Below the pieces are notes generated by a model, which was not told the origin of the DNA, did not search any database, and saw nothing but the letters and a program-made list of their open reading frames with translations. Below, in pieces: positions 7,246-28,701 of a stretch of 64,000 bases of DNA. A program made the position numbers and the translations under genes. Source of the stretch: a virus; the IMG/VR virus record IMGVR_UViG_3300023276_000007, positions 1 to 64,000 of that record; one strand, 5' to 3'. How positions within the stretch are numbered: the first letter of the stretch is position 1; each line of letters starts with the position of its first letter.

Positions 7246-9243
7246 ATGCCCGCTAACAGCAACGACCCTTATAACGATAGGCAGCAGTCCAATGGGGCTG
7301 GTAAATTCCCTAACCCTTTCTATGATGTAGCTTCAGAATTTATCCCTACTGACATTAACAACGTCCTTGAGTGGGCAGAGTATGTTTACATGTCCTTTGG
7401 AACATGGAGAGCAGCCTCTCGAAGAGTTGTAAGATATTTCCTTACCGACCTAATATTAGAAGGGGAGTCTGATCAAGAACGTGAAGACTTCAACAAGTTC
7501 CTTAATGATAAGCTACATATAACTACAGAGCTGGGCCAGATCGGTGATGAGTACATGACCTATGGTAATGCTTTCGTAAGTATCTATTTCCCCTTCGATC
7601 GCTGGTTCAAGTGCCCTGAGTGTAATATAGAGATCAAGTCAGGCAAGCTTCCTTATAAATATAATGCTAGTAAGGCTACCTTTAATGCAACATGCCATAA
7701 GTGTGCATACACTGGTGCTTGGAACCATGAAGATAGAAGAAGCGCTGATAAAGACCGAGTTAAGATCATCAGATGGAACCCTAAGCAGATGCGCCTTAGA
7801 GTCCACCCAGTTAGTGGTAGAACCACATACTTCTGGGCTATCCCTCAGTCATTCATCAAGAACGTCGAGGAAGGCAAGCACTTTTACATTGACGACACAC
7901 CATGGCATGTCCTTAAGACTATTGCTAAGAACACTGCACAGAGTGGTTCAGAAGCCGGCCCGCTGTTTGAGTTTAACGACGGAGCCATCTATCACTTTAA
8001 AGAAAACACCCTAGCAGGGCTTCCGATAGTAGGATGGGGAATACCTCAGATACTACCAAACTTTAAGTTGATTTACTACATTCAGGTCTTGCGTCGATTC
8101 GACGAGGCTATAGCTCACGACTTCATTGTTCCTTTTCGTGTTCTTTACCCAGATGCTGGGCCTTCTCCGGCGCAAGATCCTCTGACCAAGACATCTCTTA
8201 GTGGTTTCGTCACGAAGCTACAAGAGGTTAAGAAGATGCACCGCGCAGATCCTACTGGTATAACCATTGCACCTTTCAAGGTCGGATACCAGATGCTAGG
8301 TGGTGAAGGTAAGTCCCTCACACCTAAGGACCAGATCATGCAGGCTCTCGACGAGCTACTTAACGCGATGGGTTACCCTGCAGAACTCTACAGAGGCTCT
8401 CTAGGAATCCAAGCGGCACCAGTTGCCCTAAGATTGTTCGAGAAGACGTGGGGATCACTTGTTGATGGTTATAACGACCTAATCGCTTGGATGCTTGAAC
8501 GTATCTCTAAACACTTCATGTGGGGTGAGATCACTGGTAAGCTTCAACCTGTTACTCTTGCAGACGATATGGAACGTAAGGCACTTAACCTTCAAGCATC
8601 TGCAGGTATGGATGTTTCTAAAGGCACAGCCTACAGACCATTTGGTATCGACTACATGGCGGAACAGGAAAGAATCGTACAAGAGCAGCAGTCTATTCAG
8701 AAGCTGCAGCAGTCTGCTATGGAAGAAGCCCAAGCCCAACAAGGTATGGAAGGCGGAACTGGTGGTGGAGGCGCTCCTGGTGGAGAAGCCGGCGCTACTC
8801 CTGGTGATATCCATGAGCAAGCTAAGCAAACAGCCCAACAGCTATTGTTCCAGACTCCGGAGACCCAGAGACGATCTGCCCTTATTGATATTAAGCATAG
8901 TAACCCAACGCTACATGCACTAGTACTGCAAGAGATGAGTAACATCCGTCAAGAAGCATCTAGCCAAGGCCAGTCAATGGTCATGGAACAACAGAAGCAG
9001 CAGATGGGTGACGCTGGTGGGGGCATGGTAGCCCAAGCTAGTGATACTGGCGGTAAGTACGACGCAACCACGATGTCAGTATTCTCTATGGACAGTATCA
9101 TAGCCGACGGGGTCCTTTCTTATAACAATTCTGATTGGCAGAAGTTAGCTACTGCCATTACTAATATTAAAGATACTACAGCCCCAGCCTATCAGGCCTT
9201 CCGATTTGCATTTAGGAAGCTGAAAGGATGGGACGAAGAGTAG
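7246..9243 (+). CDS. portal protein
   Basis: Position after terL; GGAGG RBS; portal-like YMTYGNAFV, IYHFKE, GWGIP motifs; Q/G-rich C-terminal tail; CxxC...CxxC insertion. Confidence 0.8.
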   Translation: MPANSNDPYNDRQQSNGAGKFPNPFYDVASEFIPTDINNVLEWAEYVYMSFGTWRAASRRVVRYFLTDLILEGESDQEREDFNKFLNDKLHITTELGQIGDEYMTYGNAFVSIYFPFDRWFKCPECNIEIKSGKLPYKYNASKATFNATCHKCAYTGAWNHEDRRSADKDRVKIIRWNPKQMRLRVHPVSGRTTYFWAIPQSFIKNVEEGKHFYIDDTPWHVLKTIAKNTAQSGSEAGPLFEFNDGAIYHFKENTLAGLPIVGWGIPQILPNFKLIYYIQVLRRFDEAIAHDFIVPFRVLYPDAGPSPAQDPLTKTSLSGFVTKLQEVKKMHRADPTGITIAPFKVGYQMLGGEGKSLTPKDQIMQALDELLNAMGYPAELYRGSLGIQAAPVALRLFEKTWGSLVDGYNDLIAWMLERISKHFMWGEITGKLQPVTLADDMERKALNLQASAGMDVSKGTAYRPFGIDYMAEQERIVQEQQSIQKLQQSAMEEAQAQQGMEGGTGGGGAPGGEAGATPGDIHEQAKQTAQQLLFQTPETQRRSALIDIKHSNPTLHALVLQEMSNIRQEASSQGQSMVMEQQKQQMGDAGGGMVAQASDTGGKYDATTMSVFSMDSIIADGVLSYNNSDWQKLATAITNIKDTTAPAYQAFRFAFRKLKGWDEE

Positions 9244-9424: not shown

Positions 9425-9453
9425 AAAGCCCTTAGCCCTCTAAGGGCTTTTTT
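9425..9453 (+). terminator. intrinsic terminator
   Basis: AAAGCCCTTAG-ccct-CTAAGGGCTTT followed by a T-run. Confidence 0.8.
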
Positions 9454-10206: not shown

Positions 10207-10547
10207 TGACCACCTCTAGATCTACACCCCACCGCTTAAGTGATCAAGACTTGGAAATGTTAGCTGTCGTGGCAAACAAACGCGACTACCCTAAGTGGGG
10301 TTGGAACCCGATAAAGACGTCGGTAGACTTTGAGCACATACTTACTAATGCGTCGAAAGTTGGTTTTTATATAGATCTATCTTTTCGACCACAAGGCCGT
10401 ATTAGCGTAAAGGTTAAGTACCCTACAAACGAGTTCTTCTCTAATGCAGAGACGGCGGAGACATATAAAACGTATGTATGCAGGACGATACTAAACATAC
10501 TCAACGACTTACCTAACAAACAGTTAGAGGCTTTTTTAAATGAATAA
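10206..10547 (+). CDS. hypothetical protein
   Basis: 113 aa, TAATG-coupled to the protease gene. Confidence 0.6.
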   Translation: MTTSRSTPHRLSDQDLEMLAVVANKRDYPKWGWNPIKTSVDFEHILTNASKVGFYIDLSFRPQGRISVKVKYPTNEFFSNAETAETYKTYVCRTILNILNDLPNKQLEAFLNE

Positions 10548-11196
10548 TGAAATGATACAAGCCTCTTATGTTGCTGGCTTCCGTGATAGACTAGCTAGCG
10601 TGTTAGAAAAAGAGTCGGCCTATACTCCCTTCGACCATCTACTCAGACAGAAGCCATTACCAGAACCAGTAGCAGCGTTCCTAAGAAAGTACTTAGGGCA
10701 TATAGATGACGGCGGCGACACAGCTGCACTTTCTAAGATCCAACAAGAGTTCCTATCTGGTAAGCCATCTAAGGCTATACAGCCAGAGCTGCCAGGATTT
10801 GATGACCTACTTAATAAGCAGTCAGCCGAGAAGGTAGCAGGCCTAGCCTCTCTTCTAGCAAGGATGAAACAGCCATTGATACCTAGAGGCACAGTACCTA
10901 GGACAGGCGACAGGACAGTTTACAAGATACTTAACACGATAGACCCGCGACTAGGTAAGAAATATCAGCGCAAGGTAGAGTTCAGACCAAGCAAACCTTT
11001 CAGCGACTCTGATTCGATAACAGGTAAGTCAGTAGACCTCCCAGTAGTGGATCGTATGCTAGACGTAACAGAAGGTATGGATGACCTAGGCTATGGAAGT
11101 CTAAGACTACCAGCTAAGCCGTCACAAAATAGCGTTATTGATAAGTTAACGAACTATGCGCGGAAGCAAACTAAAAACATACAAGGGTACGTATGA
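10540..11196 (+). CDS. putative internal virion protein with GF-type leader
   Basis: ASYVAGFRDRLASVLEKESA leader; internal EKVA followed by amphipathic GLASLLARMK. Confidence 0.6.
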   Translation: MNNEMIQASYVAGFRDRLASVLEKESAYTPFDHLLRQKPLPEPVAAFLRKYLGHIDDGGDTAALSKIQQEFLSGKPSKAIQPELPGFDDLLNKQSAEKVAGLASLLARMKQPLIPRGTVPRTGDRTVYKILNTIDPRLGKKYQRKVEFRPSKPFSDSDSITGKSVDLPVVDRMLDVTEGMDDLGYGSLRLPAKPSQNSVIDKLTNYARKQTKNIQGYV

Positions 11197-13148
11197 AGAC
11201 GCCACAGTTACTAACTATTATTAAAGAAGCAGCCAAGGGTGACTCCTATGGTTGCGCTATGCTGTATTTCGAGGATGCAGACTCTAACTGCCTTAAGAAC
11301 TGGAACGCCGACATGAAGGCCATAGAGATCCCAGACGAGGATCTTCATGAGTACGGTAGAGAGGATGAACCTCACGTCACGGTACTATACGGATTACACA
11401 CAGGCTCTGCAGCTAAGGTTAAGAAGGCCCTTGCAGATAATGAGTGTACTGTAATGACGGTAAGAATGGGTGGACTGGATATCTTTGAGAACGACGACTT
11501 CGATGTTCTGATCCGTAAGGTAGAAAGGGTGGACCATCTAACCGAGGTGCGTAAGCATCTTATCGACAAGTTGGAAACAACAATCACTTTTAAAGACTAT
11601 AAGCCACACGCTACCGTTGCCTACCTTAAGAAGGGTAAGGGGAAGGAATACCTCAAGAAGTATAAAGACCTCGACTGGAAACTTAACGGTGAATTCGACT
11701 GTGACACAATAGATTTCTCTAATAAAGGAAAGACGCATACTAAGATAAACTTGACAGCTGTCAAGGCTGCCTCAATAGATGTAGATATCGAAGTAGGCGA
11801 TACAGTCCTTACCGGAAGATTTAAGAACAAGAAGACTGTAGTTAAAGAGATAGGCACTGACAGCAATGGCCAGCCGACGATTAACGGCATGAAGCTATTA
11901 GCTATGCGTATTGATAAGTTAATGCCTGCTAAGGCCGAGAAGAAAGCCGCCGATCTCCCAGGAAGATGTGACCGATGCGACGAACCTATAAAGGAAGCAG
12001 ATACAACTAAAGAGACCTTGTGCGCTCACTGCATAGGCCTTAAGAAGAAAGCCGGTGAAGGCTCTGCTCCTAACTATAAGCAAGCAACAGACCCAGCAAC
12101 TAAGTGTTCTAGCTGCTCACATGCTGAGGCCGGTTACTGCACTCTGTATGACTTCGCGTTCAATGCCAAATTTACCTGTGATAGCTTTGCTACTGATATG
12201 CAAGCCTTGACAGACGAGGGAGTTCCTCAAGTAGTTGAGAAGTACCTCCCCAAAACAGCACAGTACGTAAACCCGTACTTAAAAGATATAGAGATGGAAC
12301 ATTTAAAGAAGCCACTGCCAGATAGCCTTACTAAGCTAGTAGCTTGGCTTGTTAGCCGTAACGACGCTAACCGCAAGATAAACACTTACTATGGAGCCAT
12401 GGATAACATGAAACAAGCACAGGTATTACCTACCGGCCCTGCTACCAACAATACCCTACCAGGGTCTGCTACTGCACCTACTGGTGGGATAGTAGCGCCT
12501 ATGAATAACAGCGTACCTAGTATGAACGCTGGCGGAGCGGGTGTTGTGTCCCCGAACCTTAAGAACAGTTTCCAGAACATTGCTCAGACAGGAGTACGTA
12601 ACTCAGCAGCGGCAAAATCTAAAGGACAACTGCCTGACGCCCCTAAAGCTAAAGAACAGCTCTCTGAAGTTGCGGCAGACCTTAACCAATCTAATACAGA
12701 CACCCCGGAGTCAGAAGCTGGTACGCCCGCATCTTCCGGAGTGGCGGACAATGGTAGCCTTTCTTATGGCGTCAACCCACAGGCATCGGCATACGGCGTT
12801 AATGCAGCACCGACCACTGATACTAAGGCGGCCTCTTTTGCACACGGATTCGTAGCAAAGTGTCACGAGTATGGAGTAGACCCAGAAGAGTTACTCAATA
12901 AGTCTGCACAGTTAGAGTTTGGTAAGCCAGGTACTCCAGGGTACCAACACTCCTACCAACCACAAGGCGCATTTGAGATGGAGCCGGGTAAGTCAGTATG
13001 GTCACCGCAGCAAAGGAAAGATATACAGAGGGGGCAGTTTACTAGCGCAGCGCTAAAGAACGTCGCCCGATCTATGTTCAGTAATCAATACGGTAATATA
13101 CCAACCTCACAAACTCAGATGATTAACTTTACAGAAGGCAAGGCATAA
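11193..13148 (+). CDS. multidomain protein: 2H phosphoesterase (T4 gp57B/Acb1-like) plus small Cys-rich modules separated by K-x-A motifs
   Basis: Two HxT motifs (EPHVTVLYG, KPHATVAY); CxxC modules; internal GF leader copy near the C-terminus. Confidence 0.75.
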   Translation: MKTPQLLTIIKEAAKGDSYGCAMLYFEDADSNCLKNWNADMKAIEIPDEDLHEYGREDEPHVTVLYGLHTGSAAKVKKALADNECTVMTVRMGGLDIFENDDFDVLIRKVERVDHLTEVRKHLIDKLETTITFKDYKPHATVAYLKKGKGKEYLKKYKDLDWKLNGEFDCDTIDFSNKGKTHTKINLTAVKAASIDVDIEVGDTVLTGRFKNKKTVVKEIGTDSNGQPTINGMKLLAMRIDKLMPAKAEKKAADLPGRCDRCDEPIKEADTTKETLCAHCIGLKKKAGEGSAPNYKQATDPATKCSSCSHAEAGYCTLYDFAFNAKFTCDSFATDMQALTDEGVPQVVEKYLPKTAQYVNPYLKDIEMEHLKKPLPDSLTKLVAWLVSRNDANRKINTYYGAMDNMKQAQVLPTGPATNNTLPGSATAPTGGIVAPMNNSVPSMNAGGAGVVSPNLKNSFQNIAQTGVRNSAAAKSKGQLPDAPKAKEQLSEVAADLNQSNTDTPESEAGTPASSGVADNGSLSYGVNPQASAYGVNAAPTTDTKAASFAHGFVAKCHEYGVDPEELLNKSAQLEFGKPGTPGYQHSYQPQGAFEMEPGKSVWSPQQRKDIQRGQFTSAALKNVARSMFSNQYGNIPTSQTQMINFTEGKA

Positions 13149-17099: not shown

Positions 17100-17341
17100 T
17101 GCATAACGAAGCATTTCAACAAGGCTTTCACGATAGATGTGCTGAGTACGGCATTGATGGCGAAGCACTCAAGCAAGCTGCGGAAGGTCCTTTTCTAAGT
17201 GATGCAGAGAACAAAGCAGATAAAAATCGTAAAAAAGGTAAACCAGCCGTTACCACTAGCGCTAAAGACACTGAAGAAACTCCAAAGTCTTTGGCTAAGA
17301 AGATCAAAGACGGCTACAGTGTTGGCACTGTAAACAAGTAA
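17099..17341 (+). CDS. small Lys-rich protein with GF leader
   Basis: AFQQGFHDRCAEYGIDGEALKQA followed by a basic tail. Confidence 0.65.
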   Translation: MHNEAFQQGFHDRCAEYGIDGEALKQAAEGPFLSDAENKADKNRKKGKPAVTTSAKDTEETPKSLAKKIKDGYSVGTVNK

Positions 17342-17377
17342 AGCTTTAAAGAAGCCGGTAAACACTAAGAGGAAACT

Positions 17378-19411
17378 ATGCACAACAGTCTTTCGCAAGA
17401 TGATATTAATAAACACGCTCTAGTTGCCGGCTTCGACCTTCTCCTTAAGGAATCACAGGTTGCAGGCGCACTACCAGAGCACCTACGAGCATTCGATGAT
17501 GTAGATAAGACAAGAGAGCTTATCTATGGCAACGTTATTAGCTCCCTTACAGATAAGTTCCCATACTCAGATGGTAAGCACCGTCTTGAGTTACACAACG
17601 TTAAATATTCTGGACCTAAGGAGTATACCTGGGCCCAACAGAAGAAAGCGTTGATTAGCAACAAATCATTGAAGACCCCAGTTAAAGGTACTTGGAAGTT
17701 ATTCGACGAAGAGACAGGAGAGCAGCTCGATGAGAAAGAAGAAGTTGTCATGGACGTTCCTTACTATACCCAACGAGGAACCATCGTTAATAATGGCAAT
17801 GAGTATACCGTCGTTAACCAATCCCGACTCAAACCTGGAGTTTACACACGGACCAAACAGAACGGGGAACATGAAACCCAGTTTAATGTTAAGCCCGGCA
17901 CCGGTAGAGGATTCCGTATATGGATGGAACCTTCTTCAGGTATCTTCCGTGTTAACGTAGGTCAGGCCAACATACCAGCATACCCTTTCCTTAAGATGCA
18001 AGGCGTCTCCGATGAGCAGATGCAGAAGTCTTGGGGTGATGATGTTTATAATGCGAATGTTAAGAAGCAAGACCCACAAGCAGTAAATAAACTTTATGAA
18101 AGGTTTGCCGGTAGTAAGGCAGACAAAGAAGCCACACAAGATCAGAAGGCCGACTACATCAGAGAGCAGCTGACTAAGTCTGAGCTAGATGAGCGCGTGG
18201 TCGAAAGAACTACTGGCTTAGTAGGAACTAAGACCGTCACACCCGAACTACTGCTGCGGACGACTAATAAGTTGCTTAACGTCAACCGTAGAGAAGAAGA
18301 CACCGACGATCGTGACGCGCCAGAGTTCTCCAATATTTTAAGTGTAGAAGACTTCGTTAAAGAACGTATCGATAAAGATGCCGGTAATACAGCTAGGCAG
18401 ATGCTCTTTAACGTCAGAAGGGATAAGAACCTTGGAAGAGTTAGACGAGGAGCCCTGAACAGCTACATGAGCTCACTACTGTTAGGATCAGGCCTAGCCT
18501 CTCCTACTGAAGAGACGAACCCTTTCCAAATCATGGATCAACACAACCGTATCATTAAGCTTGGTGAGGGTGGTATAAGTTCTGCCCAAACTATTACTGA
18601 TGAAGCACGTGACGTTAATACTGGTCAGGTTGGTTTCATTGATCCTGTCGCTGGGCCTGAGTCTGATAAGGTAGGTATCGATGTTCGAGCATCCTACAAA
18701 TCATTCAAAGGTAATGACGGACAGATCTATGCAGAGTTCTTAGACAATAAAGGTAAGAAGCAATACCTGAAGCCAGAGGATATGGCTGGAGCTACTGTTG
18801 CATTCCCCGGACAAGACCCTAAGAAGCAGAAGTACGCTAACGTTATTAAGAATGGTAAGCTTACAAAGACTGACTGGGAGGACGTCGATTATACAGTGCC
18901 GTCACAAGCACATATGTACTTCGGTGGATTCAACCTCACACCATTACCAACATCATTTCAGCCAGGACGTGCGTTCTACGCCTCTAAGTATTGGAGTCAG
19001 TACCTTCCACTTAAGAATGGGGAAGTCCCACTCGTCCAGACACAGGTTCCAGGAGAGGACGCAAGTTTCTCTGAACACTACGGTAGAAAGACTGCCGGTA
19101 TAAACTCCAAGGTTGGCGGCATTGTTACTAAGGTTACCGACGGTGGAGTTACAGTTACAGACGAAGAAGGCAAGAAGCATTTCTACGAGACTGTAAAAGA
19201 TTTCCCTTTCAACAGGCTTACCGCGATATCATTCAGCCCAAAGGTTAAGTCCGGCGATGTGGTAAAGCCTGGCGACATGATTGCCCACTCGAACTTCACA
19301 GATAAAGAAACTGGTGCGTTCAACATGGGTACTAACCTCAAGACTGCAGTCGTACCGTATGAAGGATTCTCTTTTGAGGATGCATACGTTATCTCGGAGG
19401 CTGCCGCATAA
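17378..19411 (+). CDS. rpoB: phage multisubunit RNA polymerase, beta subunit N-terminal part
   Basis: VPYYTQRGTIVNNGNEYTVVNQ, DDRD, TNP...LGEGGI, RDV...GFIDPV.GPE, GTNLKTAVVPYEGFSFEDAYVISE match bacterial beta motifs. Confidence 0.9.
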   Translation: MHNSLSQDDINKHALVAGFDLLLKESQVAGALPEHLRAFDDVDKTRELIYGNVISSLTDKFPYSDGKHRLELHNVKYSGPKEYTWAQQKKALISNKSLKTPVKGTWKLFDEETGEQLDEKEEVVMDVPYYTQRGTIVNNGNEYTVVNQSRLKPGVYTRTKQNGEHETQFNVKPGTGRGFRIWMEPSSGIFRVNVGQANIPAYPFLKMQGVSDEQMQKSWGDDVYNANVKKQDPQAVNKLYERFAGSKADKEATQDQKADYIREQLTKSELDERVVERTTGLVGTKTVTPELLLRTTNKLLNVNRREEDTDDRDAPEFSNILSVEDFVKERIDKDAGNTARQMLFNVRRDKNLGRVRRGALNSYMSSLLLGSGLASPTEETNPFQIMDQHNRIIKLGEGGISSAQTITDEARDVNTGQVGFIDPVAGPESDKVGIDVRASYKSFKGNDGQIYAEFLDNKGKKQYLKPEDMAGATVAFPGQDPKKQKYANVIKNGKLTKTDWEDVDYTVPSQAHMYFGGFNLTPLPTSFQPGRAFYASKYWSQYLPLKNGEVPLVQTQVPGEDASFSEHYGRKTAGINSKVGGIVTKVTDGGVTVTDEEGKKHFYETVKDFPFNRLTAISFSPKVKSGDVVKPGDMIAHSNFTDKETGAFNMGTNLKTAVVPYEGFSFEDAYVISEAAA

Positions 19412-21838
19412 ATGCTTGAGACTGAACGGTTGGTAGGCTTTGATAAGACGTCTAGAGGTGAGGACGTAGTTAACAAGAATAAGTTTCTATCAGCCTTCAG
19501 TAAGAAGTTCACCGCCGACCAGTATAAGACTATTACTGATAACGGTGTGGTGAAGACGGGAACTATACTCAAGAAAGGCGACCCCATTATTTTAGCTCTT
19601 GGACCTAAGGTTCTAGGTAAAGAAGATGAGAAGCTTGGTCGTCTACATAAAACTTTAAGAAACGCCTTCAAGGATGACTCGGTAGTTTGGGAATCAAGGT
19701 TCCCTGGAGTTGTTACTGATGTTGGTATTACTAACAAAGGCGTAAAGGTTAACGTTAAAACATCGTCCCCAGCTCAGATGGGTGACAAACTGGCAAATCT
19801 TGCCGCATCTAAAGGTGTTATAGGGAAAATTATTCCTGATGACGAGATGCCTAAGGATCAGTTAACAGACGAACCTTATGAAATGCTACTTAACCCTATG
19901 GTAGTCCAGTCCCGTGTTGCGCCGAACCAGTTAGCAGAGATGCAGCTGGCTAAGATAGCTAAAAAAACAGGGAAGGCTTATAAGTTACCATCCGAAGCAC
20001 CAGAAGAGGGATGGAGCGCGTTTGCTAAAGCAGAGTTAGATAAGAATGGACTATCTGCAAGGAACACTGTCTACGACCCAGTAAAAGGTAGAGAGATAAA
20101 GAACCTTGGTGAAGGCTATATGTATATGAGTGCATTCCACCACTTAGCAGAAAAGAAAGTATCTGGCCGCGATATGGTTGGTGGCTACACAGATGCTGGT
20201 CAACCTTCTAAAGGCGGAAAGACTGGAGCTAAGAAGTTTAGTGGTATGAACCTTAACGCTGCATTAGCTCACGGTGCCCATGAGGTTATCAAGGATGCTA
20301 CCCTTATCCGAGGTGTTAAGAACGAAGACTATTGGAACACTCTAAGGTCAGGTAGACCACTTCCAGAGCCAGAGACACCATTTATATATGACAAGTTTAT
20401 GAACACCTTGAAGGCCGGCGGTATTAACGTCGACAAGAAGGGTGACATCCTTTCTATCATGCCGATGACTAATTCAGACATCGATAAGATATCTGGCGGA
20501 GAGATCAAGAATAGCCGTACTGTCGACATCAAGAATCAGGACAGTGCTCCTGGTGGTTTATTTGATATGGCAGTTACTGGCGGTGCCGGGGGTAATAAGT
20601 GGGGACACATAACTCTAGCAGAGCCTATCCCTAACCCAGTAATGGAAGAACCTATCAGACGTGTACTTGGTCTTAAGGTAAAAGACTTCCACGACATACT
20701 AGCCGGTAAGCAAGAGCTTGAAGGCGAGACTGGTGGCAAGGCTATACGTAAGGCACTTGGCGCAATAGACGTTGATAAAGATATTGAAAAGTATACCCAT
20801 GAGATTAAGACTGCTCGTGGTGCGCGTAGAGATAATGCAGTGAAAGCACTTCGTTACTTACATGCAGCTCGTAAGCAAAGTATTAGCCCTACTGATTGGA
20901 TACTAGATAAGGTACCAGTAATCCCACCAGCGTTCAGGCCTATCTCACAAGTAGGCGATATGCTCAAGGCTTCTGACCTTAATGGTTTGTACCGCGACGT
21001 TATCGAAACAAACAATAGTATTAAAGACTTAAGAGAAGACCTACCAGAAGATGAGCTAGCAGATGAGAAGATCGCTCTTTATAAATCTGTAACTGCAGCA
21101 TTTGGTTTAGGTCAGCCTATTACTCCAGATGGTACCTCCAAGAATTGGAAGGGCGCGATCAGACAAGTTATTGGTAGCAACCCTAAGACAGGTATGCTCC
21201 AGAGTAAGGTTCTTTCCAAGACTGTTAACTTTGTAGGTAGAGCTGTTGCCAGCCCTAACCCTAACTATGATATGGACACAGTCGGTATCCCAGAGAATAA
21301 GGCATGGACTATTTATAGACCTTTCATCATTCGCGCACTTGTACGTGATGGTGTACCACAAGCCAAAGCTACTGAGATGGTAGAAGACCAAGATAAAGTA
21401 GCTAAGGATGCCTTGATTGCAGAGATGGATAAGCGCCCAGTGATTATGGATAGAGCGCCTACATGGCACAAGTTCAACCTTCTTGCATTCAAGGGTAAGC
21501 TAGTTGAGAGCGACACCATACAGGTAAGCCCTCTTATTGTTGCAGGGTTCAATATGGACTTTGATGGCGATGCTGTTAACTTCCACGTTCCAGTCTCAGA
21601 CAAAGCTGTTAAGCAAGCCTGGGAAAAGATGACACCATCTAAGAACCTGTTTGCAGTTAATGACCTTAAGTCCCCTCAACATGCTATCAGTAAAGAGATG
21701 GCTATGGGACTTTACCAACTTACTCGTAAGGCTAAGAATAAGAAGCCTGTAGTCTTTAGTTCTGTAGAAGAAGCTAAGAAGGCCTACAAGGAAGGATTGA
21801 TTGATGCCAACGACCCAATTGAAATAGAGGGTGCATAA
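19412..21838 (+). CDS. phage RNA polymerase, beta C-terminal part fused to beta' N-terminal part (catalytic)
   Basis: beta motifs GDK...KGV, NP..V.SR, HHLAEKK, GQP..G; beta' motifs WGHI.L, VPVIPP.FRP, SDLN.LY, GRAV, RAPT.H and NMDFDGD (21551-21571). Confidence 0.92.
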   Translation: MLETERLVGFDKTSRGEDVVNKNKFLSAFSKKFTADQYKTITDNGVVKTGTILKKGDPIILALGPKVLGKEDEKLGRLHKTLRNAFKDDSVVWESRFPGVVTDVGITNKGVKVNVKTSSPAQMGDKLANLAASKGVIGKIIPDDEMPKDQLTDEPYEMLLNPMVVQSRVAPNQLAEMQLAKIAKKTGKAYKLPSEAPEEGWSAFAKAELDKNGLSARNTVYDPVKGREIKNLGEGYMYMSAFHHLAEKKVSGRDMVGGYTDAGQPSKGGKTGAKKFSGMNLNAALAHGAHEVIKDATLIRGVKNEDYWNTLRSGRPLPEPETPFIYDKFMNTLKAGGINVDKKGDILSIMPMTNSDIDKISGGEIKNSRTVDIKNQDSAPGGLFDMAVTGGAGGNKWGHITLAEPIPNPVMEEPIRRVLGLKVKDFHDILAGKQELEGETGGKAIRKALGAIDVDKDIEKYTHEIKTARGARRDNAVKALRYLHAARKQSISPTDWILDKVPVIPPAFRPISQVGDMLKASDLNGLYRDVIETNNSIKDLREDLPEDELADEKIALYKSVTAAFGLGQPITPDGTSKNWKGAIRQVIGSNPKTGMLQSKVLSKTVNFVGRAVASPNPNYDMDTVGIPENKAWTIYRPFIIRALVRDGVPQAKATEMVEDQDKVAKDALIAEMDKRPVIMDRAPTWHKFNLLAFKGKLVESDTIQVSPLIVAGFNMDFDGDAVNFHVPVSDKAVKQAWEKMTPSKNLFAVNDLKSPQHAISKEMAMGLYQLTRKAKNKKPVVFSSVEEAKKAYKEGLIDANDPIEIEGA

Positions 21839-22356
21839 TGCCAGCAAAGCCTGTAGTCGAAAAGGAGAAGAGCTCTTGGTTAATAATAGCCGAGAAGGTA
21901 GTACTTCCTATCTTAGGGTTCCTTTGCATCTGGATCTTTAATACAATTAACGTATTAGAGGATGAGTATAGCAAACTATCTGATAAGAACTTGCACGAAC
22001 GTATCTTGGAGCTAGAGAAGCGAGAAGAGGCTATTGATGAGAAGTTTAAAGAGATGTCTGCTATGTGGCGGGTTATTAAAAGCTATGATGACAAGATAAC
22101 AGCTAACAAGGTACAATCACAAGTGAACGCATTAGTACATGCCAGACTTACAACTACTAGTACTGTAGAGTCGTCTGTATTACCTAACCCATCTAAGAGT
22201 TGGAAACCTCTTCCTCTGCCTCATATTCTTAAGCCTGTTGACAATAAAGAACTTATTCTAAATAAGTTTAAGCTTGACCTAGACAAAGACCCGGAGCAGT
22301 TTAAACAAAAGCATCTACGAGAATTTAACCAAGAACAGCTAGAAAGGAAGAGGTAA
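21838..22356 (+). CDS. membrane-anchored coiled-coil protein
   Basis: One N-terminal TM helix (VVLPILGFLCIWIF) followed by a coiled coil. Confidence 0.6.
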   Translation: MPAKPVVEKEKSSWLIIAEKVVLPILGFLCIWIFNTINVLEDEYSKLSDKNLHERILELEKREEAIDEKFKEMSAMWRVIKSYDDKITANKVQSQVNALVHARLTTTSTVESSVLPNPSKSWKPLPLPHILKPVDNKELILNKFKLDLDKDPEQFKQKHLREFNQEQLERKR

Positions 22357-23048
22357 TGTCACAGCAACCACCTAAACAAGCACCATCGTTACTAAATAGA
22401 GCTAAACACTTAGCAGGCGCAGCAGGGCGCATAGGTAAAGCCGCAGCTAGCGGAGATGCGGTTAAGGTGACTAATGATACTCGTAATAAACGGATAGCGA
22501 TCTGTGAGAGTAACAAGTGTGGGGCATTTAATAGTAAGGAGCGAATCTGTAACTGGTGTGGTTGCTTTATAAACCAAAAGGCTAAGTTCGCCACCGAAAT
22601 GTGTGGAGAAAGAGAAATCGCAGAGCAGAACGGTACTGCCGGGCATGATTGGTGGGAAGCACAGACGGTTAACAGTAAGGGCAAGGTAGAAACTCCTGAA
22701 ACACCTAAACCACAACGTACTAAACGGTTTGAACTACACGGCAACTCCCACTATATTACCGGAACGAAATTGTTAGAGCAGGAAGCCCATCTTAGGATGA
22801 TACTACCTACTAATGGTGAGTTAGTTAAAAAATTTAATGAGTATCACGTAGCTCAGAGTCAGCCTGGAGGTTGTTCCGGATGTCGGAAGAATTCTTTTGG
22901 AAGAGCTTTTGAGAAGGCATTGTCCACGGACTTTGTTAAACAAGGAACAGAACTAGTTGAAAAGGTTAGAGCTATATACCCAGAGTCTAAGTATATCTCT
23001 GCACCCAGCCCGATTACTTGGGAAGAATTAATAAAGAGGACAAAATGA
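22356..23048 (+). CDS. Cys-rich hypothetical protein (DUF6171-like metal-binding motif)
   Basis: RIAICESNKC...ICNWCGCFINQKA...C and GCSGC. Confidence 0.6.
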   Translation: MSQQPPKQAPSLLNRAKHLAGAAGRIGKAAASGDAVKVTNDTRNKRIAICESNKCGAFNSKERICNWCGCFINQKAKFATEMCGEREIAEQNGTAGHDWWEAQTVNSKGKVETPETPKPQRTKRFELHGNSHYITGTKLLEQEAHLRMILPTNGELVKKFNEYHVAQSQPGGCSGCRKNSFGRAFEKALSTDFVKQGTELVEKVRAIYPESKYISAPSPITWEELIKRTK

Positions 23049-23782
23049 ACTACTTAGATGACAATACCTTAAAAGCTATCAGAGCTTCTCAACTAAACAA
23101 AGAAGCTTTTGTTGCTATGCCGGGCGGTATGCCTGAAGATCAAGGCCAGGGCGGGGCACCACCACAAGGCGGACCTCCTCAGGGCGGACCACCAATGGAC
23201 CCAGCAGCAGGCGGACCACCACAAGGCGATCCTTCAATGGGCGGCGGAGCACCTATGGGTGAGCCAGTACCTCAAGAGATTATACCAATACTACAGCAGA
23301 TGGGTATTCAAGTAGATCCTCAGACAGGTATGGCAGTTGATCCAGAGACAGGGCAACCAATACCTACTGAAATGGTTATGCAAGTTCTACAAGAGAACGG
23401 TATGCTTGGTGGTGGCGATCCTTCAATGGGCGGAGATCCTTCAATGGGTGGCGCACCAATGGGCGGCGATCCTTCAATGGGCGGCGGAGCACCAATGCCA
23501 CCCGAGCCAGCACCTGCACCACCCGAGCCGCTACTACCACCAGATAGTATAGCAATGGCATCTAAAGAAGAATTTAAAGCAATCATGTCGGATGTTCTTA
23601 AGAGAGACCTACCAGGGCTTCTTAAGCAAGAACTTCCAACATTGTTACAGCCACTACTTAAAGAGGCAGTAGCTCAAGTCCTATCAGGACAGTATCAGGG
23701 CGATGAGCAGTTACTTACTAGTATTGCGGATTCGGTATCAAGTAACAATGAACTATTAAACTCAATCACAGGAGTATTATAA
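23045..23782 (+). CDS. Pro/Gly/Met-rich protein with K-x-A propeptide
   Basis: ATG 23045 after GAGG (ATGA overlap); LNKEA followed by GGPP and GDPSMGG repeats. Confidence 0.65.
   Translation: MNYLDDNTLKAIRASQLNKEAFVAMPGGMPEDQGQGGAPPQGGPPQGGPPMDPAAGGPPQGDPSMGGGAPMGEPVPQEIIPILQQMGIQVDPQTGMAVDPETGQPIPTEMVMQVLQENGMLGGGDPSMGGDPSMGGAPMGGDPSMGGGAPMPPEPAPAPPEPLLPPDSIAMASKEEFKAIMSDVLKRDLPGLLKQELPTLLQPLLKEAVAQVLSGQYQGDEQLLTSIADSVSSNNELLNSITGVL
23225..23495 (+). repeat. dispersed coding repeat GG(C/A)GATCCTTCAATGGG (GDPSMG), four copies
   Basis: One copy near 23225 and three clustered at about 23414-23482. Confidence 0.7.
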
Positions 23783-24270
23783 TGACACAAGAACAGGCAT
23801 TCCAACAAGGATTCGTAGATAAGTGCGCAGCACACGGGGTCGACCCAGTGTTGGTAATAGATGCACATCTAAAGAAAGAAGCAGGGCTTAAGGACCTTGG
23901 ACAGGACCTTGTGGGGAAGCTATTTGGAAGAAGCGTTCCAGAAAGTGTAGGTAGGTATATCGACGCAGTACTAGGTGGGAAGAAAACCGGACTGGGACAT
24001 AAAATCAGCCTAACAGATATGAACATGCGCAATGCGCGCAGCCAAGCAGACAACATTACCCGCAATAGCGCCCTCAATGGTCCAGCCATCGAGAAGGACC
24101 TCGAAAGGTACGAAGACATGTACAATGCGATGAAAACCCAGAAGGGAAGGCTTGAATCAGATCTGTTTGACGAGACCCGGCGAGTAGCTGATGCGCGTAC
24201 CGGTACCGCCGCTGGTGCTGGCGTAGGCGGACTACTAGCTAGCTTGTTAGGTAATAAAGACGAGGAATAA
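23782..24270 (+). CDS. putative internal virion protein with GF leader and C-terminal glycine zipper
   Basis: AFQQGFVDKCAAHGVDP...LKKEA; C-terminal GTAAGAGVGGLLASLLG. Confidence 0.7.
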   Translation: MTQEQAFQQGFVDKCAAHGVDPVLVIDAHLKKEAGLKDLGQDLVGKLFGRSVPESVGRYIDAVLGGKKTGLGHKISLTDMNMRNARSQADNITRNSALNGPAIEKDLERYEDMYNAMKTQKGRLESDLFDETRRVADARTGTAAGAGVGGLLASLLGNKDEE

Positions 24271-24497
24271 TGGCTAAACGAGTAATAGTAAAAGGTCCTA
24301 TCGGTTGTCCAATACTCTTGGACACTGATCACGCAACTGCCATCGAGTTCTATGATGACAGTGGGGACCTTTGTGCTGTTTTCGGTAAGGTTATAAATAA
24401 AAACTTTTGGTCGTTCTCTACTAAGAACGATAAGGATTGGAACGAAACGCTCCAGCAATTGGGTGTTAAATATATGAAGGCACCGATACTGACATGA
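24270..24497 (+). CDS. hypothetical protein
   Basis: 75 aa, translationally coupled on both sides. Confidence 0.6.
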   Translation: MAKRVIVKGPIGCPILLDTDHATAIEFYDDSGDLCAVFGKVINKNFWSFSTKNDKDWNETLQQLGVKYMKAPILT

Positions 24498-26353
24498 GCA
24501 CTACCGTTGGACAGCTACTAGTTAATGACCTACTTCCTGAGAAGTATAAGGATCATGAGAGATCGCTTACTGGGGATAACCTTACAGATCTTCTTGCCCA
24601 GATTGGTAACGAAGACCCTGACCTTTATAAAAGCCTTTCCCATAAGCTTATGCAGATGGGCGCCAAGGCTTCTTATACAGAAGGTACTACTATCTCCATA
24701 GAAGACCTATTAACTCCCGATCCGAAGCTGCGTAAAGAAGTCTTTGCCTTTGTTGATAAGCAAGAAGACGTTATACGTAAATCTAAAGACCTGACAGACG
24801 AAGAAAAGCAGACAGCCTTATCTACAGTCTACTCAGCAGCTCAGAAGAAACTAGTCGACGGCACAATGGCTGCCGCAGTTGCCCAAGACAATCCACTAGC
24901 ATTACAGATCTTATCTAAAGCAAGAGGTAACCCAGGACAGCTTACTGCTATGACAGCAAGTCCTGGTATCTATACTGATGCCAAGGATAACGTCGTTCCA
25001 TTATTCGTAAGAAGAAGCTATGCAGAAGGCTTAAGCCCTGCAGAATACTATGCAGCAACGTTCGGTACTCGTAAGGGTGTCATTGCTACAAAGTTTGCTA
25101 CTCGCGATGCAGGAGACTTTGGTAAGCAACTTAACACTGCATCAGCTGACCTTATTGTTACTGAAGAAGACTGCGGTACTCCTAATGGAATACCTGTTGG
25201 AGTTGGCGATACAGACTCGGTAGGAGCTTTGCTTGCTAAAGATGTAAGTGGTTATAAAGCCGACGCTGCTGTTGATTCTCGTATGCTCAATAAGCTAGAT
25301 GGATCTAAATATAAGAAGATCGTAGTACGCTCTCCAATTACCTGTCAAGCAAAAGGTGGTGTATGTAAGAAGTGTGTAGGTCTTCGTGAGAATGGCAAGC
25401 TACCCGAACTACGACAAGCTGTAGGTATCCAAGCATCATCTGCATTAGCAGAAAGAATTGCACAGGGATCACTCAATACCAAACATGCCGGAGGTCAAGC
25501 TTCTGGCGATGGTGAAAAAGTTTATGCAGGGTTCCCTATCATTAATCAGATAGGACAGATCCCTAAGACATTCAGACACAAAGCAACTCTTGCAGACGTT
25601 GACGGTGCCGTATCTAAAGTAGAGACAGCACCTCAGGGTGGTACTAATGTATACATCGGTGACACGATACATTACATAGAACCAGAGCAAACAGTCAACG
25701 TGAAAGAGGGTGACGACCTAGAGGCTGGTGATCAGCTTTCAACAGGTATCATTAACCCAGCAGAAGTCGTTAGGCATAAAGGTATCGGCGAAGGTCGACG
25801 TTACTATGCAGAGCGATTGACTAAAGCCTTTAACGACAGTAAGTTAAAAGCAAACAGGCGAAATACAGAGTTAGTAGCACGAGCTGCTATTAATCATGTA
25901 GAAGTTGAAGACCCTAGTGGGTTAGGAGATTACTTACCTGGAGATGTAGTTAGTTACAATAACCTTGCAACAAGCTATGCCCCTAGAAAAGACGCCGTAG
26001 CTGATAAGCCCTCAAAGCTTGTTGGTAAATATTTAGAGCAACCTTACTTGCACCACACGATCGGTTCAAGAGTCACCAATAAGGTCGCTAAAGAGTTAGA
26101 AGAGTTTGGTATAGATAACATACAAGTACATGATAACCAGCCAGGTTTTACTGCGAGTATGATACGGTTAAGAGCTGTACCACATTATGGTAAAGATTGG
26201 TTAGCCAAGTTGCAAGGTTCATACTTGCAGAGTAACTTGTTGCAGGATGCACAGACAGGTGCAACCAGCGACATACACGGCACCCACCCAGTACCTGCAG
26301 TTGTTTTTGGCAAAGAACTTGGTGAAAGTAAAAAAGATAGAGTTACATTTTAA
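24494..26353 (+). CDS. rpoC: phage RNA polymerase beta' subunit C-terminal part
   Basis: TTVG, SKARG, bridge helix EGLSPAEYY..TFGTRKG...T.DAG, EEDCGT, RSPITC...VCKKC, trigger loop AVGIQA...AQGSLNTKHAGG. Confidence 0.92.
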   Translation: MSTTVGQLLVNDLLPEKYKDHERSLTGDNLTDLLAQIGNEDPDLYKSLSHKLMQMGAKASYTEGTTISIEDLLTPDPKLRKEVFAFVDKQEDVIRKSKDLTDEEKQTALSTVYSAAQKKLVDGTMAAAVAQDNPLALQILSKARGNPGQLTAMTASPGIYTDAKDNVVPLFVRRSYAEGLSPAEYYAATFGTRKGVIATKFATRDAGDFGKQLNTASADLIVTEEDCGTPNGIPVGVGDTDSVGALLAKDVSGYKADAAVDSRMLNKLDGSKYKKIVVRSPITCQAKGGVCKKCVGLRENGKLPELRQAVGIQASSALAERIAQGSLNTKHAGGQASGDGEKVYAGFPIINQIGQIPKTFRHKATLADVDGAVSKVETAPQGGTNVYIGDTIHYIEPEQTVNVKEGDDLEAGDQLSTGIINPAEVVRHKGIGEGRRYYAERLTKAFNDSKLKANRRNTELVARAAINHVEVEDPSGLGDYLPGDVVSYNNLATSYAPRKDAVADKPSKLVGKYLEQPYLHHTIGSRVTNKVAKELEEFGIDNIQVHDNQPGFTASMIRLRAVPHYGKDWLAKLQGSYLQSNLLQDAQTGATSDIHGTHPVPAVVFGKELGESKKDRVTF

Positions 26354-26388
26354 TAGGCGGCGAGCCGGATAAACAGGAGACAATATAA

Positions 26389-28701
26389 ATGAATTTCAAT
26401 GACTTACTTGTCGATGAAAGTGTGCTGACAAAGCTCGCAGTCGAAGGACCTAACCAACAGCAGGTCGAGCAAGATTTCGGAAAAATGGCTTATGCCTTCT
26501 TGAAGGATAGAGCACCTAGCCTCATTACACACCTAATTGGGTTTGAAGTAGTTGAGGCAGAACCAGATGGGTCCCGAGCTGTAGGCCTTTTCGGTTTCGA
26601 CGTAGGTGGTAGATACTTCTATGTCCCAACGTTCTTCCTAAGTAATCAGATTAAAGGTATGGATCTTCTTTATGATAAAGAAGCCGACATGTTCTACCCT
26701 TTAAGAGAGAACTGGATCAACCACATTCTTAATAAGCAGACTATACAGTTAGGCGATGCCGCCCAACCAGGAGTCTCCCAGGATTTCGATACACCAGATT
26801 TTACAGCCATTTCAGATCCCCCAGTCGGCGGATCAACAAAACTTTCAGCTCATCAAGTAGGCCACGACCTAGCGGCTACTTGGAATCAGATACAGAAGAC
26901 TGTCGCTGACTCACTTGAGAATGATGACGCCTTTAAGTCAGCGTATGCAAATGCTGTACTTACTATGAAAGGTGAGCCTAACATTAAAGAAGCCAGTTTC
27001 CTTACCGACTTTATCGAGCATAAAGGCGGACCTAAGATGGCAGCAGCAGTTGCGCAGTCTTTACAGGACATCAACTTCATCAAAGCAGCAGCTGTGTTCT
27101 ATGAGCCTAGCGAACTATTGATTAATGACTTCAGTGAGGCACTAGCCCCTAAAGAAGCTAAGTCTGTTAAAATCGTTACAAGAGAACTTGTCGACGATTA
27201 CAGTAAGGACATGGATGATGATGACCGTACTCGTATCGTTGAAGACGGATTCACTCTTACAGATAACCGTGAAAAGGCTAATAAGTCAGACGTTTATACT
27301 GTTGACTATGCTAGCTCGCTACAGAATCCAGATTACTCTGGTGAATGTGACGTAGTTCTTTCAAGTGGTATCTGTACCCCTTGTTATGTAGCAACTACAC
27401 CTTTTGGCGCAACTAGCCCAGGACAAGTCTTAGTTATCAGTAAAGATACTAAGAGATTCTTCACAGCACATGAAAGAGTTGTTTTCGTAAGAGACGCCCT
27501 TAATGAGTCCGACAAGACTAATGCCCCTCTTTATAAAGGAGCTGTTGAGGTTGGAGACATGGAGCTTGATGCTACTTATGTACTTGTTAAGGAAAATGGA
27601 CAAACGTCTATACCTTTCAAGACTAGATCAATTACCTCAGAAGACGGCGATGATGTCCGTATCAGAGTTAACTGGATTAACAACTTAGACTTCGGTGACG
27701 ACTACGAGGGTACTGACTACCCAAGAGCGCACATTGCAGAAGCTAACCCTAGCTGCCTACCTTCTTACGGGGAAAGTTCTATTATACCTGTAGATCGTAT
27801 TGGTGGTTTAAGAGTATCCTCTAGAAATATGATTGTGCCTACTGAAACCTGGAAAGCTGTTAAGCTTACAGAGAAGAGACACAGCTCTATGGAAGGTAAG
27901 GTATTCTCACCAGGAACTTATTCAGAAGTTAAAGAAAATTTACTTAAGATGGCTTATCATGACGTTGTCATTGAGTCTATGGGTGAAGGCGTTGGTTACA
28001 ACATCAGTATTGACGGTTCTGTAGTCCAAGACAACCTAGATGCTAAAGAAGCGTCATTAGCGATTGCTAGAGACCTTGGTATCGATGCAGGTGAAACGCT
28101 AGCTATCATGGACGAGGTCAAACAGGCCGGAGCTACTAATAGACTAGTTAAGTTTGCTCAGCAGGTTTCTATGCCGGAAGTACCTCCACAGTATGTCGGT
28201 TACGACGCACACACTGGAGTACCTATCCATCCAGCACAGATTGACAGAGTAGAAGGCTCAACAGAACCATATACACCACCATACGTAGGACCTGGCGACA
28301 GTATCTACATGGGCGGTGAAGGTGAAAGACAGCAGCAGTCTGCACAAGGACAAGGCGGACCTAGCCCTACTGAATTATCACAGCAGGCAGCAGCAGCTGG
28401 CCAGCAACAAGTATTTGACCATAGTGTCGTCGGCGGTCTAGCGCAGACTTATGATGTAAGCTTTGCAGTCGACAGTTACGTCCCGGACCTTCTTAAGTGT
28501 CTAGACCGTATCGGTAGAATCTTATTCTTATTCTACTGGAAGAACGTCGACTTCGCAGAACGCTATGGCGATCAAGACCTTACCGCAATGGAAGATCAGC
28601 TACGAGGTGTCTTTAAGTCACTTGGCGATCTATCATTGAAGCTTAAGCAAAAGACTATTGACGCCGAAGGTACGGAGTTCGTAGACGGAGGAGCTATCTA
28701 A
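26389..28701 (+). CDS. large putative internal head protein
   Basis: 770 aa, GGAG RBS; TKLA, KEA, KAA, KMA, KFA motifs; position in the head cluster. Confidence 0.65.
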   Translation: MNFNDLLVDESVLTKLAVEGPNQQQVEQDFGKMAYAFLKDRAPSLITHLIGFEVVEAEPDGSRAVGLFGFDVGGRYFYVPTFFLSNQIKGMDLLYDKEADMFYPLRENWINHILNKQTIQLGDAAQPGVSQDFDTPDFTAISDPPVGGSTKLSAHQVGHDLAATWNQIQKTVADSLENDDAFKSAYANAVLTMKGEPNIKEASFLTDFIEHKGGPKMAAAVAQSLQDINFIKAAAVFYEPSELLINDFSEALAPKEAKSVKIVTRELVDDYSKDMDDDDRTRIVEDGFTLTDNREKANKSDVYTVDYASSLQNPDYSGECDVVLSSGICTPCYVATTPFGATSPGQVLVISKDTKRFFTAHERVVFVRDALNESDKTNAPLYKGAVEVGDMELDATYVLVKENGQTSIPFKTRSITSEDGDDVRIRVNWINNLDFGDDYEGTDYPRAHIAEANPSCLPSYGESSIIPVDRIGGLRVSSRNMIVPTETWKAVKLTEKRHSSMEGKVFSPGTYSEVKENLLKMAYHDVVIESMGEGVGYNISIDGSVVQDNLDAKEASLAIARDLGIDAGETLAIMDEVKQAGATNRLVKFAQQVSMPEVPPQYVGYDAHTGVPIHPAQIDRVEGSTEPYTPPYVGPGDSIYMGGEGERQQQSAQGQGGPSPTELSQQAAAAGQQQVFDHSVVGGLAQTYDVSFAVDSYVPDLLKCLDRIGRILFLFYWKNVDFAERYGDQDLTAMEDQLRGVFKSLGDLSLKLKQKTIDAEGTEFVDGGAI

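Follow-up and report, generated by a model that had tools for sequence, protein, structure and literature searches.

A fused and split RNA polymerase in an Arash-like marine phage, with a rare stop-start allele that cuts the β subunit

This report concerns the RNA polymerase (RNAP) encoded at positions 17378–26353 of the IMG/VR virus record IMGVR_UViG_3300023276_000007. The stretch analyzed, hereafter called the window, comprises the opening 64 kb of this 106,765-bp record, which was judged to be ~57% complete and belongs to an uncultured, Arash-like marine tailed phage; Megablast against INPHARED gave no match. The record has a single Rpb1_2 locus, and no other RNA polymerase was found there. 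Three open reading frames (ORFs) encode the enzyme (Table 1): a β-N chain, a chain in which β-C is fused to β′-N, and a β′-C chain with the N terminus MSTTVG. The PHROG profiles phrog_24349 (full-length β) and phrog_25354 (β′) match in the same order as the Pfam domains. A preliminary description of this DNA had proposed three RNAP pieces within 17378–26353, with a β-N of 677 amino acids, a covalent β/β′ junction near 20420–20465, and a β′-C chain beginning at TTVG after five intervening genes. The ORF list and Pfam domains bear out the first of these proposals, BLASTP agrees with the second by putting the end of β at fusion residue 341, and the MSTTVG start, with five + strand ORFs lying in between, bears out the third.

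Table 1. Features of the RNAP locus, its genomic surroundings and the inteins of related loci; positions refer to the window unless a related locus (L number) is named
Feature	Position	Strand	Remarks
β-N chain, 677 amino acids	17378–19411	+	Pfam Rpb2_3 and first quarter of Rpb2_6; ~E. coli β 1–823; SI1 absent
β-C fused to β′-N, 808 amino acids	19412–21838	+	Rest of Rpb2_6 (residues 29–260), then Rpb1_1 and Rpb1_2
β′-C chain, 619 amino acids	24494–26353	+	Pfam Rpb1_5; ~E. coli β′ 572 to end; SI3 absent
Covalent β/β′ junction GGINVDKKGDILSIMPMT	20417–20470	+	Residues 336–353 of the 808-amino-acid ORF
Catalytic loop NMDFDGD	21551–21571	+	Fusion residues 714–720; equivalents of β′ N458, D460, D462, D464
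TAA-ATG stop-start junction cutting β	19409–19414	+	AAG AAG (Lys-Lys) in other contigs
GGAGG Shine-Dalgarno core	19397–19401	+	10 nt upstream of ATG 19412; only in this allele, GGAGT in others
31-codon N-terminal extension of β-N, lineage-specific	17378–17470	+	Relatives begin at the equivalent of LPEHLRAFDD, ~residue 32
Five ORFs in the β′ gap (172, 230, 254, 162 and 75 amino acids)	21838–24497	+	Content differs among relatives and strains
Divergent sigma-70-family factor, 236 amino acids	55064–55774	+	Sigma70_r3, E 1.6e-5 (at cut-off); PHROG 351 “RNA polymerase sigma factor,” E 3e-11
Terminase	3076–4785		Arash gp1
Portal	7246–9243		Arash gp204
RNAP	17378–26353		Arash gp206, gp216
Conserved 770-amino-acid protein directly after β′-C, no family match	26389–28701	+	Arash gp218 “structural”; position kept across the clade, including D181
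Major capsid protein	37117–38172		Arash gp226
Sheath-like protein	41477–45715		Arash gp236
Inteins in L008	6209–7245, 8828–9990, 16551–17002
Intein in L006	6236–7257
Intein in L007	13206–14239
Inteins in L011	6197–7470, 8327–9363
Intein in L013	6566–7878

The three chains were mapped onto the bacterial β and β′ subunits. Residues are numbered after Salmonella rpoB and rpoC (locus L059), whose products of 1342 and 1407 amino acids have the E. coli subunit lengths, and the numbers are hence treated as E. coli numbering. BLASTP against the Salmonella proteins aligns β-N 303–674 with β 450–820, fusion residues 98–341 with β 1044–1338 of 1342, fusion residues 396–796 with β′ 101–541, and β′-C 48–334 and 335–491 with β′ 620–939 and 1126–1285, respectively; in the PDB alignment, β′-C 2–492 matches Streptomyces β′ 660–1170. 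Fusion residues 1 to ~345 therefore correspond to β 825–1342, and residues 396–808 to β′ ~101–553. The lineage-specific inserts SI1, SI2 and SI3 are therefore absent. The first 100 residues of β′ are replaced by ~50 amino acids that follow the junction and have no zinc-binding cysteines: the N-terminal zinc-binding domain is absent, with gaps at the positions of Cys70, 72, 85 and 88, and the whole 808-amino-acid chain contains zero cysteine. The second zinc site (Cys814, 888, 895 and 898) is kept as C227, C284, C291 and C294 of β′-C, and so is the trigger-loop His936 (H331 of β′-C). In the alignment with Salmonella β, R678, E813, D814, K1065, K1073, R1106 and H1237 are all kept, the first three lying in the β-N chain, and β′ R425, N458 and the aspartate triad D460/D462/D464 are likewise intact. 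Judged by these residues, the enzyme looks catalytically competent. Domains, catalytic residues and BLASTP mapping thus agree with what had been claimed in outline, namely a multisubunit RNAP with cellular-like motifs, a β/β′ fusion and a separate β′-C.

The fusion and the cut in β′ are traits of a family and are not particular to this phage. Among cultured phages, Salmonella phage Arash (OQ632216) and the Vibrio phages D181, D148 and D69 each match the whole 808-amino-acid query as one piece (tblastn, 33–34% identity). Arash gp206 is a single 1525-amino-acid ORF holding all of β plus β′-N, and gp216 (606 amino acids) is its β′-C; the fusion query is also covered in full by 23 IMG/VR contigs at 31–66% identity. 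In 25 relatives, the C terminus of β is joined to β′-N in one ORF, and in all two-chain relatives β′ is cut at the same position (query residue 807/808 versus residue 1), across gaps of 0.6–4.7 kb. Three layouts occur among the relatives: all of β and β′ in one frame of 2105–2507 codons; β and β′-N in one frame with β′-C apart, which is the commonest; and that of D181, in which β is cut ~150 residues earlier than here and a homing-endonuclease gene lies in the gap. A scan of 5.8 billion proteins, filtered for >1415 amino acids and E ≤ 1e-20, returned 961 matches, the top 120 of which all combine PF00562 and PF00623. Stop-free, in-frame inserts of ~1 kb in the relatives' RNAP genes are taken to be inteins because many of the long family proteins carry Intein_splicing or LAGLIDADG Pfam domains. 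These inserts are mostly ~1 kb long (0.45–1.3 kb) and occupy several sites (Table 1; also in L017, L018 and L027); the RNAP genes of the studied phage have none. Shorter relatives include D181-type pieces of ~930–1016 amino acids, an unfused β (P0215, 989 amino acids) and β′-N (P0133, 600 amino acids) that share one 174,720-bp contig and are 63–67% identical to the studied phage, and four clusters of ~798 amino acids (P0150, P0152, P0157 and P0159; 793–801 amino acids) that are β-C/β′-N chains starting ~7 residues downstream of the cut that separates β-N from the fusion here. The zone just before the β flap thus suggests itself, from these sequences, as one where fission is recurrently tolerated. 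Within the family there are enzymes fused throughout, enzymes both fused and cut, enzymes without the fusion, and enzymes whose β is cut at one of several sites.

This family is large, comprising hundreds of phages, with Arash and the Vibrio D-phages as its cultured members, and no description of it was found in the literature. The Arash paper annotates the genes as β and β′, leaving the fusion undescribed (PMC10585845), and literature searches for a β-β′ fusion in phages found no description. The studied phage shares with Arash and the D-phages the fusion of β to β′-N, the separate β′-C and the position of the β′ cut, as well as RNAP genes located on the stretch from portal to major capsid protein, a sigma factor of the phage's own (gp10 and gp196 in Arash; predicted in the studied phage) and no α or ω found (Arash, D181); identity over the whole fusion is the 33–34% given above. 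Differences are also apparent. Arash β is uncut, unlike that of the studied contig; D181 carries a homing endonuclease at its earlier β cut, whereas the studied contig has a bare TAA-ATG and no mobile element; and the catalytic loop reads AADYDGD in Arash and D181 but NMDFDGD in the marine subclade of the studied phage.

What is particular to this phage is a five-letter fission allele within β whose uncut ancestor is known exactly. The β-N and fusion ORFs share one frame, and their sole separation is the TAA at 19409–19411 followed by ATG. At this point all 25 relatives read K/Q/D-K, straight through; L008, for example, has ISESAAQKLASERL where the studied contig has ISEAAA*MLETERL. Positions 17300–26400 were compared with Logan contigs of four seawater runs that belong to different studies. 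The three that span the cut show the same five differences there (19400 G>T, 19408 A>T, 19409 T>A, 19411 A>G, 19413 T>A), so that they read TCT GCC GCT AAG AAG (S A A K K). One of these contigs has just one further difference in 4358 nt, which places five of six differences within 14 nt. Jointly, the five substitutions create the GGAGG, the TAA (from AAG) and the ATG (from the next AAG), and because they cluster in this way with three coherent effects, the patch is not readily seen as a set of independent neutral hits or read errors. Shine-Dalgarno cores precede 65% of this phage's genes versus 13% of background windows, GGAGG precisely precedes 9% versus 0.8%, and tight abutment of stop and start is the norm in this genome. 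In exact look-ups, the 677- and 808-amino-acid proteins occur on the studied contig only, and three uncut versions of 1486 amino acids occur on five contigs (ENA, JGI and Logan); one of them, P0005, differs from the studied phage solely by A675S, *678K and M679K. The uncut 1486-amino-acid form is therefore the population allele, and the three-piece form is an allele of this contig and not a family trait. The “three-piece” enzyme of the preliminary description accordingly stands for this contig, where the three ORFs are real, and falls as a general statement, the 25 relatives, the five contigs and the three seawater runs all being uncut. The sequence evidence points to a real but rare gene-fission allele that is most likely viable.

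The cut lies between E. coli β 823 and 825, past the ED motif and immediately ahead of the flap. An AlphaFold2 model of this region (mean predicted local distance difference test score, pLDDT, 70; local ~89) places it where a helix of six residues ends, shortly before the following strand. An alternative genetic code or readthrough was dropped as an explanation, the TAA being a single one in a cleanly open, densely coded genome and being followed by an ATG with its own Shine-Dalgarno sequence. The search for a donor of the patch was negative within the phage's own genome (≤6 mismatches in 22 nt), and the 24-mer spanning the junction had no match in IMG/VR. It does occur in two JGI contigs (L056 2567–2590 and L057 1204–1227), where it forms part of a flippase-like gene on the minus strand, in two sibling metagenomes, of an unrelated organism with low GC content; nothing else is common to them and the phage, and these matches were judged to be chance.

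The gap between the two parts of β′ is a hot spot of gene gain and loss. Pfam and PHROG searches with its five ORFs and the flanking genes yielded nothing useful. The 75-amino-acid ORF at its end (24270–24497, +) is the sole gap ORF kept in the four closest relatives, the protein measuring 75–93 amino acids across these phages, with counterparts in L005 (11979–12239), L006 (10993–11274), L007 (11952–12209) and L008 (15218–15475); it matches no known family, and by its conservation its product is a candidate accessory protein. In a related seawater strain (run X5, 95–99% identical), position 23702 is joined to 24270, and 23703–24269, including the ORF at 23782–24270, is missing.

Neither feature of the chain architecture is without parallel in cells. 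Natural β-β′ fusions exist in Helicobacter/Wolinella and in Wolbachia, and E. coli rpoB-rpoC fusions have been engineered. The fusion is mentioned in a Helicobacter paper (PMC6531487). As in the phage, the C terminus of β is joined directly to the N terminus of β′ in these natural fusions; however, they keep a full-length β′, the zinc domain, α and ω, whereas in the phage β′ is cut again, the zinc domain is gone and no α or ω was found. The second parallel is the split of β′ into γ (RpoC1) and β′ (RpoC2) in cyanobacteria and plastids, which likewise cuts after the catalytic double-psi barrel. Cyanobacterial γ aligns to fusion residues 429–803, and RpoC2 aligns from about β′-C residue 47. The phage cut, at about E. 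coli β′ 553–572, falls ~50 residues before the cyanobacterial site as extrapolated from the alignments, and its gap holds unrelated genes.

No recognizable α or ω accompanies the enzyme, in keeping with the preliminary description: α (PF01000) was not found in the phage's own 106.8-kb record, and searches of five relatives with complete genomes, namely Arash, D181 and three from IMG/VR of 190–214 kb, recovered neither α nor ω (PF01192), while 14 of 14 control genomes matched. A sigma factor, by contrast, is predicted. The divergent 236-amino-acid protein listed in Table 1 is the likely initiation subunit, judging by its profile matches. Its ORF sits inside the block of tail and baseplate genes. 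Region 2 of sigma-70 was detected in Arash (twice), in D181 and in one IMG/VR relative; Arash sigma gp196, used as a protein query, gave no match in the closest relatives, and sigma-70-like promoters show no enrichment around the RNAP genes.

The setting of the RNAP genes among head genes, as initially described, is confirmed by their location between portal and major capsid protein and by a clear synteny with Arash (Table 1). A strong terminator-like hairpin (9425–9450, +; 11-bp stem plus T run) directly follows the portal gene plus one small ORF and marks where a long co-directional block begins that contains the RNAP and head genes, and no convincing + strand terminator was seen from 9450 up to 28900; the RNAP genes are thus probably cotranscribed with the head genes. 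In purified Arash virions, Gp206 gave the most spectra (3516), with 1210 for Gp216 and 467 for the sigma factor Gp10 (PMC10585845). By analogy, packaging of RNAP in the virion of the studied phage is plausible, perhaps slightly favored, and the case for it draws only on the Arash proteomics and the gene position.

An N-terminal extension of β-N with a GF-like segment had been noted as well. The chain does begin with an extension of ~30 amino acids that its relatives are without, and its ATG at 17378 is preceded by a GAGGA Shine-Dalgarno sequence, with no alternative start nearby. The GF-like segment does lie in this extension, but a profile search gave it no support. Many small head-region proteins share an N-terminal motif that reads roughly aromatic-x-x-G-F-x-[DE]-[KR]-[CL]-A (ORFs at 10540, 13208, 16593, 17099, 28701, 29738, 38282—where it occurs twice—and 39170), and a profile built from nine clear GF leaders recovers those nine plus one internal copy, at residues 547–565 of the ORF at 11193–13148, and leaves out the β-N segment. 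The same motif occurs on small ORFs just upstream of the RNAP genes in L005, L008, L009 and L027. The ORF at 11193–13148 (+) encodes a 651-amino-acid protein with an N-terminal 2H phosphoesterase or 2′-5′ RNA ligase-like domain and a weak, sub-cut-off match to the anti-CBASS protein Acb1.

The best explanation overall, which we consider somewhat more likely than not, is a stripped-down, fused-and-split core that carries an extra, coupled cut in this phage and works as a sigma-dependent holoenzyme without α or ω. The family norm is a whole β tethered to the catalytic front half of β′ (~1486 amino acids), with the back half as a separate chain. The 14-nt patch of five substitutions adds a further cut inside β, just before the flap domain, and the allele would be functional: β-N and β-C/β′-N would arise through re-initiation coupled to termination and associate noncovalently. 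Together with β′-C and probably the sigma-like protein, they would form a holoenzyme that assembles without host α, the β-β′ tether doing the assembly job of the bacterial α dimer. The enzyme would be made late, carried in the capsid, and would transcribe the early genes.

Several observations weigh against this reading, and they are best considered alongside two rival explanations. The cut falls in a confidently modeled, ordered region near the catalytic ED motif and not in a floppy loop, and the split allele is found on one contig only, set against the 1486-amino-acid reading on five contigs and in three other runs; the junction 24-mer is in no other viral contig. All this would be expected if the TAA were a nonsense mutation that disables the gene, or an artefact of assembly or sequencing, in a genome that is defective or in the minority, in which case the real enzyme would be two-chain and the 677- and 808-amino-acid ORFs nonworking. 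We nevertheless consider this unlikely. Random error or a lone nonsense hit would not produce a patch in which five of six differences over 4358 nt yield a stop codon with an ATG next to it and, upstream, a perfect GGAGG core; the change of Lys to Met at the very next codon is what re-initiation requires, relatives having Lys there; and natural cuts a few residues off, and elsewhere in β, are known in other lineages such as D181. The other rival concerns packaging. In it, host RNAP transcribes the early genes, the phage enzyme and its sigma factor act inside the cell on middle and late genes, and the abundance of the polymerase in Arash virions is carry-over. Of the 116 “structural” proteins listed for the Arash preparation, many are metabolic enzymes, ribonucleotide reductase and those of NAD salvage included, and the authors themselves raise contamination by carry-over of abundant proteins (PMC10585845). 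Moreover, the GF-leader profile does not match β-N even at E ≤ 10, so that no capsid-targeting leader can be demonstrated on this chain. On the other hand, Gp206 has the top spectral count among the Arash proteins, and those of Gp216 and Gp10 are high too (PMC10585845); in Arash, D181 and the studied phage alike, the portal-to-capsid module includes the RNAP genes, which run in the same direction as the head genes; and the complete Arash genome has one RNAP set, which, if it drives early transcription, must enter with the DNA. An unpackaged polymerase is thus a serious competitor that we hold to be somewhat the less probable. Further points touch the composition of the proposed holoenzyme: host α or ω could be recruited, the part missing from the ~57%-complete record could hold another RNAP set or an accessory subunit, and sigma-70 region 2 was not detected in the phage's own record or in its two closest complete relatives.

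Two other rivals place the polymerase in a different evolutionary context, and both are far less probable than those just discussed. Recent capture of a host rpoB-rpoC pair, later fused and cut, might be suspected from motifs that are clearly bacterial-like and from best PDB matches that are bacterial β′ chains. Yet the PDB scores stay flat from Bacillota and Actinomycetota to Thermus, cyanobacteria and E. coli. A scan with a pattern built around the catalytic loop, covering a single genome for each prokaryotic species, gave 599 confirmed candidates; the best 80, which represent Actinomycetota, Bacillota, Chloroflexota, Patescibacteria, Armatimonadota, Bacteroidota and Pseudomonadota, are all 31–35% identical to the studied phage in the catalytic segment. 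In a maximum-likelihood tree of 53 catalytic segments (LG+C20+F+G4, quick search), 25 bacteria from 9 phyla form one clade (Shimodaira–Hasegawa-like approximate likelihood ratio test, SH-aLRT, 97) that excludes the phage enzymes. All 19 fused-family sequences fall outside both this clade and the branch of other phages; monophyly of the family has a support of 49, which neither backs nor contradicts it, the studied phage lies within a nine-member subclade (SH-aLRT 99), and sequences within the family diverge from one another as deeply as they do from bacteria. At this sampling, the polymerase is therefore not a recent bacterial capture and is placed outside the sampled bacteria, contrary to a nesting within a bacterial clade that the preliminary description had named as grounds for abandoning its view; we find the capture scenario scarcely credible. 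The possibility that this is a split virion RNAP of the phiKZ/AR9 type is almost as improbable. It draws on weak PHROG matches, to families that bear only the annotation “RNA polymerase beta subunit” and that we take to be of that type, and on a β′ cut that, by profile coordinates, falls within some tens of residues of the apparent cut in such RNAPs. These enzymes are likewise phage-encoded β/β′ pieces without α or ω, one set being virion-borne. However, they come as two paralogous sets with neither a sigma-70 homolog nor a β-β′ fusion (PMC7824862) and consist of four or five far more divergent chains, in contrast to the one set, the fusion and the putative sigma factor here, and nine other phage RNAPs (L028–L036, group not identified) stand on a separate long branch (SH-aLRT 100, length 2.9).

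A lineage of metagenomic tailed phages with cellular-like RNAPs had also been brought up, and here the preliminary description has to be corrected. The lineage in question, mReC (Weinheimer and Aylward 2020, PMC7481178), likewise has bacterial-like, deep-branching β and β′, and it was described with Gp23-type capsids (PF07068) and PF03237 terminases (PMC7481178). Both of these defining markers are absent here: the capsid protein at 37117–38172 has no Pfam family at E ≤ 0.01, so PF07068 is not matched, and TerL at 3076–4785 matches PHROG 675 and, weakly, GpA_ATPase but not PF03237. The part of the mReC contig list that was examined contains no sample number from the related loci, and the paper mentions no fusion within mReC (PMC7481178). 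A search for Gp23 capsids in the relatives was blank without a positive control and is not counted as evidence. By these markers, the phage would not be mReC as that lineage was defined and belongs with the Arash-like phages.

A fixed subunit plan is usually assumed for multisubunit RNAPs, and this family departs from it in many ways while keeping the catalytic core. Our wider interpretation, held more tentatively than the model of the core enzyme and at somewhat less than even confidence, is that both alleles work and that a population has been caught in the act of gene fission without a mobile element, showing how the many partitions in the family originate; the enzymes would then form a large, sigma-dependent family lacking α and ω, in which the tether may replace the α dimer and which may travel in the capsid. 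This would be a rare natural case of a gene fission that is still segregating, and because the uncut ancestor is known to the letter, two constructs suffice to test the cost and benefit of cutting an essential enzyme. An enzyme of two or three chains with its own sigma factor would be a small, self-contained, bacterial-type machine, of use for studies of assembly and as an orthogonal expression tool. If packaging proves true, common marine phages would join the phiKZ-like, N4-like and crAss-like phages in importing their own polymerase.

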